Shown: positions 3,469 to 7,793 of the stretch, piece by piece
Layout of the letters: each line of letters starts with the position of its first letter
Numbering within the stretch: position 1 is the first letter of the stretch
Origin: a virus
UHGV virus genome: UHGV-0105281
Reading direction: 5' to 3' (one strand)
DNA: 23,753 nucleotides
Notes under the pieces: model-generated
Seen by the model: the letters and a program-made list of their open reading frames with translations, nothing else
Told to the model about the DNA's origin: nothing
Database searches by the model: none
Translations under genes and position numbers: made by a program

Positions 3469-3932
3469 GCAGAGTAACCGCGATTATCTCCGCTCTGGTT
3501 ATCTGCATCATCGTCTGTCTGTCATGGGCTGTTAATCATTACCGTGATAACGCCATCGCCTACAAAGAACAGCGTGATAAAAAAGTCAGTGAGCTGAAGC
3601 AGGCGACCGCCACCATTACTGACATGCAGCAACGCCAGCGTGCTGCTGATGTACTCGATGCAAAATACACGAAGGAGTTAGCTGATGCGAAAGCTGAAAA
3701 TGATGCTCTTCTGCGGAAGCTTGATAATGGTGGCAGGGTGCTCGTCAAAGGAAAATGCCCTGTGCCATCCTCTGCCGAAACCTCCAGCGCCTCCGGCATG
3801 GGCAATGATGCCACCGTCGAACTCTCTCCAGTTGCTGGACGAAACGTTCTCGGTATCCGGGACGGAATTATCCGCGACCAAACAGCATTGAGAACGCTTC
3901 AGGAATACATCAGGACGCAATGCCTTCGATGA
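3465..3932 (+). CDS. Rz i-spanin
   Basis: N-terminal TM segment followed by a charged coiled-coil region; ATG 3465 overlaps the endolysin stop (ATGA). The ORF track start at 3453 is a GTG. Confidence 0.85.
3685..3891 (+). CDS. Rz1 o-spanin lipoprotein, embedded in the +1 frame of Rz
   Basis: [19 protein letters not shown] signal peptide with lipobox and a Pro-rich mature region ([11 protein letters not shown]); AGGAG RBS 7 nt upstream. Confidence 0.8.
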
Positions 3933-4106
3933 TAGCGATAATTTTACTCATCATCCTTCACATCTGGCTCTGTAGACAGGGTGGTGCTCACTTCTGGAGT
4001 GAATCCAGATTAAACATCTCATTGCTGATGCTTGATATTGAGCATCTGGCGCGCAGTAAGGGGCTGCGTTGAGATAAGAGCCAGTTCATTACAAATACCA
4101 GGATTT

Positions 4107-4133
4107 AGCCTCGCATTTGCGGGGCTTTTTTAT
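4107..4133 (+). terminator. Rho-independent terminator downstream of the lysis cassette
   Basis: agcctcgc-attt-gcggggct hairpin followed by ttttttat. Confidence 0.6.
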
Positions 4134-4275
4134 ATCTGAATTTCACAGCGCATCTCACGCGCATATTAACGAGAGCCTTTCAGTAAGCGAGCCTGAGAAA
4201 TGCCGTTATAGGTGGCGACCTCTCTCGGGCGGCTTTTCTGTGAGACAGGCTCACTTTCTAAAAGGTAAAGACGCT

Positions 4276-4794
4276 ATGAATCATCAATTGGCTAATCTCG
4301 ATTTCCGGGACATGGTGGTTGTTTCTGGTGATCGCGTGATCACAACCTCCCGCAAGGTAGCAGCTTACTTCGACAAGCAGCATCACCACATCATTCAGAA
4401 AATCGAAAAGCTAGACTGTTCGGATGAATTTCTAACCAGCAACTTTTCGCGGGTTACCTATGAACACAAGGGTAATCAGTATGTTGAATATGAAATTTCC
4501 AAAGACGGTGCGATGTACATCATCATGTCGTTTACCGGCAAAAAAGCTGCCGCCATCAAAGAGGCGTTTATCAAAGCATTTAATTGGATGCGTGACAGGC
4601 TGATGGAGATGGCTCACTCATACCAAAGAGAGCACAACGAGTTAATGCTGGAGTTCATGAAGGAAAAGGATGTTGCCAGTATGTCAGGACGCTTGCTGAA
4701 CCGCTGGGGCAGGATCAAAAAACCGCAACTCATAGCAAGAATCGAAAGGCTTGAGCAGCAGGCGCAAATATCGATCCCCGGACTGCCAAAGTGA
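4276..4794 (+). CDS. rha: Rha-family phage regulatory protein
   Basis: MNHQLANLDFRDMVVVSGDRVITTSRKVAAYFDKQHHHIIQKIEKL is a typical pRha N-terminal domain. The ORF-track start at 4117 lies inside the upstream terminator, so ATG 4276 is preferred. Confidence 0.75.
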   Translation: MNHQLANLDFRDMVVVSGDRVITTSRKVAAYFDKQHHHIIQKIEKLDCSDEFLTSNFSRVTYEHKGNQYVEYEISKDGAMYIIMSFTGKKAAAIKEAFIKAFNWMRDRLMEMAHSYQREHNELMLEFMKEKDVASMSGRLLNRWGRIKKPQLIARIERLEQQAQISIPGLPK

Positions 4795-5077
4795 CCATTC
4801 CAAAGCCCATCTACGGGTGGGCTTGATAATGAAACCGTGATTTACATCCCCACAATCCGGGTATGTAAAAGATAGTTCAGACAAGAACAGATTTAACTAA
4901 ATCTGTGCACCACCAGTTACGGCAGTACCGCGAAACAACCCAAGCCAGTAAGTGGGGAAATAACACTGGCAGCCACTGAAAGATGAACCTCCAGCCTTAT
5001 GGCAAAAAAGATTCTTTGTGGTGGCGGACTGATGGAAAGACATCCTAATCAAGCAACCACTCTACAGGGTCATAATT

Positions 5078-5449
5078 ATGAACGACCAGCAAATCGAAAA
5101 AGAAATCGTTGAGAAAGGCAAAACGGCACCGCGAATCACCCCGCAGCACATCGAAGACGTGATTAAAAGCGAGCATTGCTTCACCGCATACGATGGTATT
5201 GGCGGAGAGGGCGCTATGGCGACATACAAATCCGCGCTTGATTTAACCGAAAGTCAGGAAGCATTAAAGCTTCTTACATTCTGCGTCCTGGTGCTGCGCA
5301 ACGGCTTCACCGTCACCGGCGAAAGTGCCTGCGCCAGCCCGGAAAACTTCGACCCGGAGATCGGTCGCAAGATCGCCCGCGAAAATGCGGTGAATAAAAT
5401 CTGGATGCTGGAAGGTGACTTGCTGAAGCAGAAGTTAAGCGAACAGTAG
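5078..5449 (+). CDS. Gp49-like protein (N4 Gp49 / Sf6 gene 66 family)
   Basis: 123 aa; motif ...TFCVLVLRNGFTVTGESACASPENFDPEIGRKIARENAVNKIW is characteristic of this family as I recall it. Confidence 0.6.
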   Translation: MNDQQIEKEIVEKGKTAPRITPQHIEDVIKSEHCFTAYDGIGGEGAMATYKSALDLTESQEALKLLTFCVLVLRNGFTVTGESACASPENFDPEIGRKIARENAVNKIWMLEGDLLKQKLSEQ

Positions 5450-5552
5450 TTATTACAAAAGCCATTCCCTACAGAGTGGCTTTGATAATGGCTTATACCC
5501 TACACGGGATAACTTAACTGATATCCCTTTTAACGGATAAACGGAGCCAACA

Positions 5553-5795
5553 ATGGCAGAGATTATTCCCATGACTGAAGAACAGAAATTCCAGTTAGAG
5601 ATTTACAAACTGGTCATGAACCAGAACGCAGCCGCAGAAGAAGCATTTCAGTTCATTGGCACTGACGAGCTGAAGCTTGAGCTATTCAAAATTCACTTCC
5701 AGTCAGGCGGCGCTAATTCAGATATCACGACCCGCACTATCGAAGCGGTGCGTAAATCGAAGGAAGCGTTAGACCTGTTCACCACCGGAGCATGA
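5553..5795 (+). CDS. Hypothetical small acidic protein
   Basis: 80-aa ORF with a GGAG RBS and good coding periodicity; no family recognised. Confidence 0.5.
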   Translation: MAEIIPMTEEQKFQLEIYKLVMNQNAAAEEAFQFIGTDELKLELFKIHFQSGGANSDITTRTIEAVRKSKEALDLFTTGA

Positions 5796-5830
5796 TGCTC
5801 AACCTGAAATAACAACTAAGTGAGATGAAT

Positions 5831-6319
5831 ATGGCAGCACCAAAGGGCAACCGATTTTGGGAGGCCCGCAGTAGTCATGGGCGAAACCCTAAATTCGAAT
5901 CGCCTGAGGCGCTGTGGGCTGCTTGTTGTGAATACTTCGAGTGGGTAGAAGCTAACCCGCTATGGGAGATGAAGGCGTTCTCGTATCAGGGCGAAGTGAT
6001 ACAAGAGCCTATCGCCAAGATGCGAGCGATGACCATTACCGGCCTCACTCTGTTCATTGATGTGACGCTTGAAACGTGGCGCACATATCGCCTGCGAGAA
6101 GATTTATCTGAAGTCGTTACGCGAGCAGAACAGGTTATCTACGACCAGAAATTCTCTGGCGCAGCCGCTGACCTTCTCAACGCTAACATCATCGCCCGTG
6201 ATTTGGGCCTCAAAGAGCAGTCGCAAGTTGAAGACGTGACACCTGATAAGGGAGATCGCGATAAGCGACGCTCTCGTATCAAGGAGCTATTCAACCGTGG
6301 AACTGGACGCGATTCTTGA
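5831..6319 (+). CDS. Terminase small subunit (P22 gp3-type)
   Basis: [29 protein letters not shown]... matches my recollection of P22 gp3; starting at ATG 5831 gives 162 aa. The ORF track starts 6 nt upstream at 5825. Confidence 0.85.
6098..6119 (+). other. Candidate pac site (GAAGATTTATCTGAAGTCGTTA) inside terS
   Basis: This 22-bp sequence matches my recollection of the P22 pac site, which lies within gene 3. Confidence 0.45.
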
Positions 6320-7793
6320 TAACCTGAGCGACGAAGAGCAAATCGAATTGCTCGAGCTACTCGAAGAAGAAGAGAACTACCGGAACACACACCTGCTATA
6401 TGAATTTACGCCATACAGCAAACAGCGTGAGTTCATCGACGCCGGGCATGACTATCCAGAGCGCTGTTTTATGGCTGGTAACCAGCTTGGTAAGTCATTT
6501 ACTGGTGCTGCTGAAGTCGCGTTTCACCTTACCGGGCGTTATCCGGGCACAAAAGGCTATCCTGCTGATGGTAAATATGGCGGTGAGTGGAAAGGTAAGC
6601 GTTTCTATGAGCCTGTTGTCTTCTGGATTGGCGGCGAGACAAACGAGACGGTAACCAAAACGACTCAACGCATCCTGTGCGGTCGTATTGAAGAGAATGA
6701 TGAGCCGGGCTACGGTTCAATACCGAAAGAGGACATCATTAGCTGGAAGAAGTCTCCTTTCTTTCCGAACCTTGTTGATCATCTTCTGGTTAAGCATCAC
6801 ACGGCTGATGGCGTTGAAGATGGCATTTCAATCTGCTACTTCAAACCATACTCGCAAGGCCGCGCTCGCTGGCAGGGTGACACAATCCACGGCGTGTGGT
6901 TTGACGAAGAGCCACCATACAGCATTTATGGCGAAGGTCTTACCCGTACCAACAAATACGGGCAATTCTCAATTCTGACGTTTACCCCGCTGATGGGGAT
7001 GTCTGACGTTGTTACCAAGTTCCTGAAGAATCCCAGCAAGTCGCAGAAAGTGGTCAACATGACCATCTATGACGCTGAGCACTATACCGACGAGCAGAAA
7101 GAGCAAATCATCGCATCCTATCCTGAGCATGAGAGAGAGGCGCGTGCTCGCGGTATTCCTACGATGGGTAGTGGTCGAATCTTCCAGATACCGGAAGAGA
7201 CTATTAAGTGTCAGCCGTTCGAGTGTCCTGATCACTTCTACGTCATCAATGCAATGGACTTCGGATGGGATCACCCACAGGCACACATCCAGCTTTGGTG
7301 GGATAAAGACGAGGACGTGATTTATCTTTCTCGCGTCTGGAAGGCCAAACAGAAGAAGGCGACAGAGGCATGGAGTGCTGTTAAAGCATGGAGCAAAAAC
7401 ACCCCTACGGCTTGGCCTCATGACGGGCATCAGCACGAAAAGGGAGGCGGCGCTCAGCTCAAGGAACAATACGCCGACGCTGGGTTCGATATGTTGCCAG
7501 ATCATGCAACATGGCCTGATGGAGGTAATGCGGTCGAACCCGGGATAGCAGAGATACGCGACATGATGCTCGACGGTCGTTTCAAGGTATTTAACACCTG
7601 CGAGCCATTCTTTGAAGAGTTTCGCCTGTATCACCGCGATGAGAACGGGAAGATCGTCAAGCTAAATGACGACATCCTTTCTGCTGTTCGCTATGGCTAC
7701 ATGATGAGGCGTTTTGCAATACAGATGCGAGACATCAAAGATCCTAAAGAGATTGATTACTCAAGCTACAACATACCTTGCGGAGTTGGATGA
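6297..7793 (+). CDS. Terminase large subunit (P22 gp2-type)
   Basis: 498 aa; position and size fit P22 gp2; GTG start with AAGGAG RBS, overlapping the terS 3' end. Confidence 0.9.

Follow-up and report, generated by a model that had tools for sequence, protein, structure and literature searches.

The DNA analyzed here, a 23,753-nucleotide stretch of the virus genome UHGV-0105281 (hereafter the window), represents the late region of a Lederbergvirus (P22-like phage). Between its lysis genes and the gene for the small terminase subunit lie rha and a Gp49-like gene, and the subjects of this report are the hairpins that directly follow these two genes, here called H1 and H2, respectively. Both are members of a conserved family of ~45-nt intercistronic RNA hairpins that fold on the sense strand and occur in temperate phages of Enterobacterales. 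By analogy with the RNase III sites of phage T7, the reading we lean towards is that they serve as RNase III-type processing or stability signals of the late polycistronic mRNA. The nearest relatives of the window are Escherichia phage APC_JM3.2, IME10, Sf6, and P22, each of which matches it in pieces only, and the 283-nt stretch separating rha from the Gp49-like gene is without a convincing gene (Table 1).

Structure and genomic setting of H1 and H2

Both hairpins share a two-tier layout: CAUUACA, a stem of 9 to 10 bp, a loop, the returning stem, and GAUAAUG, with a CA/GA internal loop. H1 consists, in order, of CAUU, CCA, AAGCCCAUC, the loop UACG, GGUGGGCUU, GAU, and AAUG, so arranged that a CAUU/AAUG lower stem and a 9-bp upper stem (4803-4811/4816-4824) enclose a 3x3 internal loop (dG -18.4 kcal/mol, z -3.3). 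H2 runs through AGUUAUUA ((A)GUUAUUA), CA, AAAGCCAUUC, the loop CCUACA, GAGUGGCUUU, GA, and UAAUGGCU, and has an 8-bp lower stem, the CA/GA internal loop, and a 10-bp upper stem at 5458-5467/5474-5483 (dG -20.2 kcal/mol, z -5.1). Each of the two is more stable than all 200 shuffles of its sequence, and each begins 0 to 2 nt after a stop codon (the TGA of Rha at 4792-4794 and the TAG of the Gp49-like gene at 5447-5449). An earlier note on this DNA, drawn from the letters alone, had reported hairpins followed by GATAATG behind these two genes; hairpins and motif are indeed there, while the extent given for them was too small, the actual structures being larger and two-tiered. Covariance model R1, built from 23 distinct copies of the element, scored H1 at 56.9 bits and H2 at 60.5 bits (E ~1e-11 to 1e-12) and found only these two in the window, nothing else exceeding 12 bits on either strand.

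A second repeat proposed in the same note, CTAC-R-N-GG at four sites, fared less well. Only the copies at 5062 and 5500 fit that pattern, and three of the four positions had been displaced by 1 to 4 nt, the one at 4811 being correct. The window holds seven matches to the pattern against 2.8 expected, a count that 5 of 100 shuffles reach, and the CTAC in the loops of H1 and H2 is not kept in the wider family, whose loops are mostly ACU, AAU, or AGU. GATAATG taken alone is weakly enriched as well (7 versus 3.2 expected).

Table 1. Features of the window around the two hairpins
Feature	Position	Strand	Evidence and remarks
Lysis genes	up to 3932
50-codon open reading frame (ORF), Sf6 gene 65-like	3920-4072
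Orphan 5' foot of a hairpin, CATTACAAA	4087-4095	+	By comparison with Sf6, the left joint of the Rha cassette
Intrinsic-terminator-like hairpin with T-run	4107-4132	+	8-bp stem with 6 GC pairs, then TTTTTTAT (terminator scan, fold); start of the Rha cassette
rha, 172 aa	4276-4794	+	Pfam PF09669 Phage_pRha (1e-23), PF10549; PHROG 518
Hairpin H1	4796-4831	+	Fold; covariance models R1 and R3
Conserved block without convincing gene, between two hairpins	4832-5044	+
Gp49-like cassette-specific sequence	5045-5447	+	Absent from P22 and APC_JM3.2
Gp49-like gene (Gp49/Sf6-gene-66 family)	5078-5449	+	Pfam PF13876 Phage_gp49_66 (3e-32)
Hairpin H2	5448-5493	+	Fold; covariance models R1 and R3
DUF2560 gene (P22 orf80), next cistron past H2	5553-5795	+	Pfam PF10834 (1e-43)
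Small terminase gp3	5825-6319		Large terminase after it

A covarying hairpin family behind unrelated genes

In P22-like phages, the hairpins belong to the late operon and to the interval from the lysis genes to the small-terminase gene. Model R1 recovered 129 sense-strand copies in 83 P22-like loci, all lying between the lysis genes and DUF2560, and a second family model (R2) detected a single copy each in Fels-1 and the complete genome of P22, between Rz and the small terminase. When viral contigs were scanned for CATTACA-N20-30-GATAATG, there were 122 matches with a bimodal distribution of pairing: 38 had 9 to 11 nested pairs and 84 had 6 or fewer, and the paired group brought many new stems (e.g., GCAGGCAUUC/GAGUGCCUGU, GAAGCUCUUC/GAGGGGCUUC, and GGUGGCAUUC/GAGUGCCACC). 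Across 57 distinct copies, 95.2% of the cells pair and double-sided changes occur at all 10 upper-stem pairs; the covariation score was 0.554 versus 0.244 for shuffles (0 of 500 reached it), slid controls stayed at or below 0.12, and a hand-made set agreed. The CA/GA internal loop and the lower stem CAUUA/UAAUG are almost invariant in the same copies. Among 24 distinct hairpins there were 33 G.U wobbles and no A.C oppositions, and the fold therefore belongs to the sense strand; model scores on the antisense strand were about half of those on the sense strand.

In 30 of 41 copies the distance from the preceding stop codon is 0 to 6 nt, and in 36 it is at most 14 nt. All copies are oriented like the flanking genes, and where a gene follows closely downstream, it has its own ribosome-binding site and starts ~12 to 26 nt past the hairpin. 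The flanks themselves are diverse, comprising at least 34 unrelated upstream ORF families, among them Rz, rha, and DUF2560-like genes, and at least 28 downstream, including those of the small terminase, an HNH endonuclease, and Mu gemA; the elements are thus in no way peculiar to the two genes behind which the earlier note saw them. Confinement to the lysis-terminase interval was also considered. It holds for the window, P22, Fels-1, and the 83 P22-like loci, and was rejected for the family as a whole since the gemA copies and one copy behind a tail-tube gene lie elsewhere, a distribution that fits a general role at the level of mRNA.

In a prokaryote scan that used one genome per species, all 10 true hairpins fell within Enterobacterales (Citrobacter, three Enterobacter, Leclercia, Raoultella, Mangrovibacter, Atlantibacter, Serratia, and an Enterobacteriaceae bacterium), whereas 110 pattern matches that do not form the hairpin came from other taxa. 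The type-A hairpin was present in 387 of 5,426 complete E. coli genomes, never under an annotated feature. These observations have already refuted the idea that the hairpins reflect chance, or mere shared ancestry without function. The marginal enrichment of GATAATG and CTACRNGG, each taken singly, would suit that idea; E values near 1e-11 with two hits only in the window, 129 ordered hits in relatives, pervasive compensatory change, and the restriction of 10 of 10 true genomic hits to one bacterial order do not.

The earlier note had framed the elements as boundaries typical of independently acquired morons and had named terminators as one of two options. Intrinsic or decayed terminators that mark independently transcribed genes are in our estimation a very unlikely explanation, even though upper stems open with A-runs and close with U-runs (AAAGCC...GGCUUU), two copies have a U-run for GA, and a true terminator adjoins the orphan 5' foot (4087-4132). 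In 55 of 57 members GAUAAUG stands where a U-tract would be expected, H1 and H2 have none, and the terminator scan, which reports 4107-4126, flagged neither of them; moreover, neutral decay would not hold the CA/GA loop and lower stem invariant while the stems covary. A moron, in the sense attributed to Juhala et al. (2000), is reportedly an extra gene that is present in some relatives only and brings its own promoter and terminator. The Gp49-like gene has the presence/absence polymorphism; a promoter and terminator of its own were not found in the scan. Because no sigma-70-like promoter lies on the plus strand near its cassette, it does not look like a classical promoter-gene-terminator moron. 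As a separate observation, the two copies with the U-run (L165:2517-2564 and L092:2235-2278) have UUUUU instead of the internal-loop GA (...GGGUGGCUUUUUUAAUGG) and look like genuine intrinsic terminators, a sequence likeness that hints at an evolutionary relationship between the hairpin family and A-tract/U-tract terminators.

The element appears to have escaped annotation. Rfam searches of 3800-6400 and of each hairpin alone yielded no family at its gathering score, the partial matches obtained being at chance level (12.5 bits or less); among the sub-threshold matches were 4790-4834 (7.8 bits) and 5449-5496 (9.6 bits) to the last 44 positions of STnc100 (RF02076; gathering score 47), probably a similarity of generic terminal hairpins only. 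GenBank annotation over the hairpins was absent from the Sf6 stretch examined and from the curated P22 RefSeq record, with the exception of P22 "orf25" (NC_002371, locus L204, 40329-40406), which opens at the AUG of the hairpin loop (hairpin at 40308-40352) and crosses the 3' arm. This gene call is doubtful, as the loop AUG is not kept in other members (loops ACU, AGU, and AUU). No prior description of the family was found in the literature searched, which did not cover the older literature on P22 genes 19-3, HK620, and Sf6. P22, Sf6, and the lambdoid prophages of Salmonella and E. coli are model systems, yet the element is unannotated even in the richly curated record of P22; the covariance model is ready for use in annotating the family.

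Resemblance to the RNase III sites of phage T7

A third covariance model (R3) was built only from the seven T7 RNase III sites R0.3, R0.5, R1, R1.1, R1.3, R4.7, and R18.5. Their cut coordinates, which we take to be those reported by Dunn and Studier in 1983 (890, 1468, 3138, 5887, 6448, 13892, and 36856), each lie 2 to 3 nt 3' of the upper stem. The T7 intercistronic spacers that hold these sites fold into hairpins with the same apex as the temperate-phage elements, site R1.1 reading AAGGUCAUUC-GCAA-GAGUGGCCUU-UAU^GAU and site R1 reading UUACAGGUCAUC-UGCG-GGUGGCCUGAAU^AGG (carets mark cuts). When model R2, which contains temperate-phage hairpins only, was run unfiltered on the whole T7 genome, T7 sites R1, R1.1, and R0.5 took ranks 1 to 3, and R18.5 and R0.3 were also among the 11 hits, 3 of which lie elsewhere. 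In the opposite direction, the best hit of model R3 in the window was H1 (19.9 bits, E 0.005), ranks 2 and 3 went to H2 (16.2 bits on the plus strand and 17.2 bits on the minus strand), and nothing else exceeded 10.2 bits; in P22 plus Fels-1 (84 kb), the model ranked the P22 hairpin first. The suggestion in the earlier note that the hairpins might be processing sites is for this reason, the resemblance in both search directions, the best supported of the options. The same search drew attention to a further hairpin on the minus strand of P22 (NC_002371, L204, 28835-28869; 14.2 bits), which separates the cistrons orf87 and gene 17 of the early-left operon. It reads AUAGCAGAUU-UACG-AGUCUGCUAU with U.G/U-A adjoining the loop (z -3.7) and, judged by model score and fold, may represent another RNase III-like site, one that belongs to a different sequence type.

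The likeness to the T7 sites extends to many details. Both kinds of hairpin are intercistronic, lie on the sense strand of a polycistronic mRNA just past a stop codon, and end ahead of the next ribosome-binding site. Both have a 9- to 10-bp upper stem opening with AAG or AAA and closing with CUU or UUU; below it come an internal loop, where the cut is expected, and a lower stem, and the 3' flank is AU-rich (NAUNAU). The apical parts correspond as well, AUUC...GAGU in H2 and T7 R1.1 and CAUCU.CGGGUGG in H1 and T7 R1, including the U.G wobble of the distal box. They differ in that the internal loop of the T7 sites (CUC / UAUGA) is asymmetric and their lower stem is longer and nonconserved, whereas the family has a symmetric CA/GA loop and the nearly invariant lower stem CAUUA/UAAUG. 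The family is found, moreover, in temperate phages (P22-like, lambda-like, and Mu-like) that rely on the host RNA polymerase for transcription and in which cleavage is a prediction only.

E. coli RNase III needs ~11 helix positions from the cut to the loop and a distal box of U-A/U.G, the U.G being stringent, while a G-C pair in the 4-bp proximal box blocks binding at position 2 and catalysis at position 4, a rule derived from a minimal substrate (Pertzev and Nicholson 2006, PMC1540722). H1 has 4 + 9 bp around its 3x3 loop and H2 8 + 10 bp around a 2x2 loop; from cut to loop, H2 offers 10 bp plus a mismatch position, as does T7 R1.1, and H1 offers 9 bp plus a mismatch, as does T7 R1. The distal box of H2 (AUUC/GAGU) is identical to that of T7 R1.1 and has the canonical U-A/U.G, and the distal box of H1 (AUC/GGU) has the U.G, as in T7 R1 and R0.3. 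Over the family, 41 of 57 copies have the U.G and 43 of 57 the U-A, and the distal-box rule explains why this U.G is conserved amid a helix that otherwise covaries freely. The proximal boxes (AAG/CUU in H1 and AAA/UUU in H2) contain no G-C at position 2; at position 4 there is an A.G mismatch, and a mismatch at that position also occurs in the natural T7 R1.1 site.

If the hairpins work like the T7 sites, the two-tier helix of ~20 bp would be bound by host RNase III, which would recognize the distal box (U-A/U.G) on the loop side and the A/U-rich proximal box at the lower end of the upper stem and would cut the 3' side of the conserved internal loop (GAU^AAUG). By register with T7 R1 and R1.1, the cuts are predicted at 4827/4828 in H1 and 5486/5487 in H2. 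A single 3'-side cut, rather than a cut through both strands, would give the upstream cistron a hairpin that protects its 3' end and would free the downstream cistron as a separate mRNA. T7 early mRNAs reportedly carry a protective 3' hairpin of this kind, a finding ascribed to Panayotatos and Truong (1985). In phage lambda, antiterminated transcripts contain an extended form of the hairpin downstream of int (sib/tI); in this form it is a substrate of RNase III and controls the fate of the upstream mRNA. By description, sib resembles the present family in being a hairpin downstream of a gene and a substrate that affects the upstream message; it differs in that it is cut on both strands, which destabilizes int mRNA, and in being a single locus instead of a repeated family.

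Several observations weigh against processing by RNase III. It is in the upper stem and 3' flank that the likeness to the T7 sites is greatest, and E values for single hits are weak (0.005 to ~5). The lower half, with CAUUA/UAAUG and the CA/GA loop, does not resemble the asymmetric loop and longer lower stem of T7, and since its near invariance goes beyond known RNase III rules, another factor could read it. Sixteen of 57 copies have C-G or G-C at the equivalent of proximal-box position 2, which inhibits binding in the minimal substrate; the Fels-1-type stem (GCAG...) was missed by model R3; and H2 scores slightly better with that model on the minus strand than on the plus strand (17.2 versus 16.2 bits). 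On balance, we nevertheless consider it somewhat probable that H1 and H2 are RNase III-type processing or stability signals.

A quite unlikely alternative is that the hairpins act independently of RNase III, as REP-like barriers to 3'-to-5' exonucleases or as modulators of termination or translation at the stop codon. Their stable sense-strand fold and location 0 to 6 nt past stop codons would be in keeping with this. REP elements are said, following Liang, Rudd, and Deutscher (2015), to stabilize upstream mRNA and to lower upstream translation when they lie within ~15 nt of the stop codon, behavior that would lend the alternative some weight. A simple barrier, however, requires neither a conserved internal loop nor a fixed U.G nor an invariant CAUUACA/GAUAAUG; the AUG of GAUAAUG opens no real genes, the ORFs there spanning 2 to 47 codons in most copies; and the specific match to the T7 RNase III sites would be left unexplained.

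Other candidates were examined and rejected. Use of the AUG in GAUAAUG as the start codon of the downstream gene or of a coupling mini-ORF, with GAGG/GAGU of the 3' arm as the Shine-Dalgarno sequence, was dismissed on account of those short ORFs, which have no consistent relation to the next start. By eye, an IHF site offers TATCAA and no TTR part, a sigma-70 promoter with GATAAT as its -10 element lacks a suitably spaced -35 hexamer, a XerCD/dif-like site would need a longer arm, and no recombinase is present for an IS200/IS605 or attC-like site; none of these four readings explains the covariation or the T7 match. If the family members are RNase III sites, late-operon expression in these phages would be shaped by host mRNA processing, as early expression is in T7, and the accessory and lysogenic-conversion cassettes of the lysis-packaging interval would depend on a shared 3' signal for their expression.

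Mosaic joints, cassette exchange, and neighboring features

As the earlier note had surmised for cassette boundaries, the hairpins are located at mosaic joints. Sf6 has both hairpins and the Gp49-like gene, is without rha, and carries H1 directly after gene 65, with an intact hairpin (...GAGCCAGTTCATTACAAAGCCTATCTACGGG...) at what is, in the window, the left joint of the Rha cassette. The window is Sf6-like up to CATTACAAA, then has a cassette of ~700 nt that holds the terminator-like hairpin and rha, and returns to Sf6-like sequence at CATTCCAAAGCC (4796); since the match breaks off and resumes at these points, the Rha cassette lies inside the 5' foot of H1. Just upstream of rha, the orphan 5' foot is followed 11 nt on by the true terminator-like hairpin with its T-run, and the pair (4087-4132) is either what is left of the split H1 or a terminator-type family member that has diverged.

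The proposal that the Gp49-like gene is a cassette is borne out by its presence in Sf6 and its absence from P22 and APC_JM3.2, in both of which a hairpin is retained at the same place. There, ...GGAAAGACATC (window position 5044) runs straight into the hairpin with the same flanks, and the upper stem has changed in a compensatory manner (GAGACCAUUC/GAGUGGUCUC or GAGGCCAUUU/GAGUGGCCUC versus AAAGCCAUUC/GAGUGGCUUU in the window); P22 next carries the pid moron in the opposite orientation. The comparison of P22, APC_JM3.2, and Sf6 therefore establishes that the cassette polymorphism is real and that the hairpin is kept with or without the cassette. Recurrence in varied surroundings is general: counted as 30-mers, the type-A stem occurs in 14 upstream and 8 downstream contexts, the GGAGCTCTT-type stem in 12 and 11, and all 14 stem types together in 52 and 46; only a few bases beyond the element, conservation is already at background level. 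In some phages (e.g., L029, L097, and L115), an H1-type stem is fused at GATAATG to the flank that normally follows H2, exactly the arrangement that a crossover between H1 and H2 would give by deleting the intervening block and gene.

These joints raise the question of whether the elements are primarily sites of recombination in DNA, as boundary or linker sequences or as attC-like folded single strands, with any role in RNA being incidental. We judge this unlikely. One stem type does have many unrelated flanks, with similarity ending abruptly at the edges of the element; the Rha cassette does lie within the 5' foot of H1, bordered by CATTACAAA and CATTCCAAA; the fused loci have the joints expected of an H1 x H2 crossover; and G.T wobbles would be tolerated in folded single-stranded DNA too. 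However, no dedicated recombinase accompanies the elements across P22-like, lambda-like, and Mu-like phages, and a pure homology patch needs no hairpin, compensatory changes, conserved U.G, or fixed position past stop codons. The specific resemblance to T7 RNase III sites would go unexplained, and recombination at 40 to 45 conserved nucleotides is an expected side effect of any conserved element. We accordingly treat a role in crossover as a consequence of the conserved element and not as its primary function. Because the same short sequence recurs at many gene boundaries, and because it forms the only conserved 40 to 45 nt linking otherwise unrelated genes, it would provide a patch of homology for the exchange or deletion of rha, the Gp49-like gene, and other cassettes. 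Red/Erf-type systems can use homologies that short.

Recurrent boundary elements have precedents. The boundary sequences (bsq) of lambdoid phages, reportedly described by Clark et al. (2001) for HK620 and by Casjens et al. (2004) for Sf6, are likewise short conserved sequences that border mosaic sections, and recombination has been proposed to center on them. Features of this kind are annotated in the GenBank record of Sf6 (e.g., bsq7); within the Sf6 stretch examined, none is annotated on the hairpins, which do sit at mosaic joints. To our knowledge, bsq elements have not been described as covarying hairpins or as RNase III-like. The PeSL elements of T4-type phages, said to have been presented by Arbiol et al. 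(2010) as mobile regulatory cassettes, are also repeated intergenic elements with a stem-loop that flank small accessory genes in hyperplastic regions, with a proposed role in shuffling; they differ in pairing an early promoter with the stem-loop, whereas the present hairpins have no promoter, another sequence, and other phages as hosts. REP/BIME sequences and integron attC sites share with the family a structure of imperfect palindromes at gene 3' ends, an analogy of structure only, and attC sites in addition have conserved inverse cores, a variable complementary center, unpaired bases, and a position bounding gene cassettes. Neither a RAYT transposase nor an IntI integrase accompanies the hairpins, and size and consensus differ.

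Under a broader and rather doubtful proposal, the element would be a portable "processing-site module": an RNase III-type signal that gives any upstream gene an autonomous, stabilized mRNA 3' end, a preferred crossover point for Red/Erf-type short-homology recombination that drives cassette turnover in P22-like, lambda-like, and Mu-like phages of Enterobacterales, and a CAUUACA/GAUAAUG base read by an additional factor, making it a phage counterpart of integron attC sites or T4 PeSLs. What we regard as new, going by sequence comparison, is the apparent occurrence in temperate phages of RNase III-like signals of the T7 type that coincide with mosaic boundaries. The family offers a sequence-level handle on why the mosaic joints of lambdoid phages coincide with gene boundaries.

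The remaining features of the locus concern the surroundings of the hairpins. Within the conserved block that follows H1, the part 4919-5044 has near-identical counterparts in P22 and Sf6 and in 75 BLAST hits to the viral-contig loci. The block contains a small ORF (4983-5048; MNLQPYGKKDSLWWRTDGKTS) with a weak third-codon-position bias of variation (8/4/4) and no Pfam or PHROG match, which in some phages (e.g., L056, L170, and L193) is part of a 60-codon ORF opening at the AUG of the H1 GAUAAUG. Folding of 4832-5077 gave no convincing structure (z -2.0). A perfect 8-bp hairpin at 4887-4906 (ACAGAUUUAACUAAAUCUGU) lies within a stretch of ~65 nt (~4840-4905) that the window shares with Sf6 and APC_JM3.2 and that is missing from L170-type relatives, in which the 60-codon ORF is thereby restored. 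Searches for tRNA and tmRNA genes found none.

Just past H2, the leader of the DUF2560 gene holds a smaller third hairpin (5506-5527; GGGAUA...UAUCCC), directly 5' of which lies the fourth CTAC (5500); a similar TTATCCCC...GGGGATAA hairpin follows the family element in L154. Finally, an exact copy of GCTTGATAATG, the 3' end of H1, occurs without a preceding hairpin at 3719-3729 within the Rz-like gene; it is probably there by chance and could be a relic or a recombination partner.

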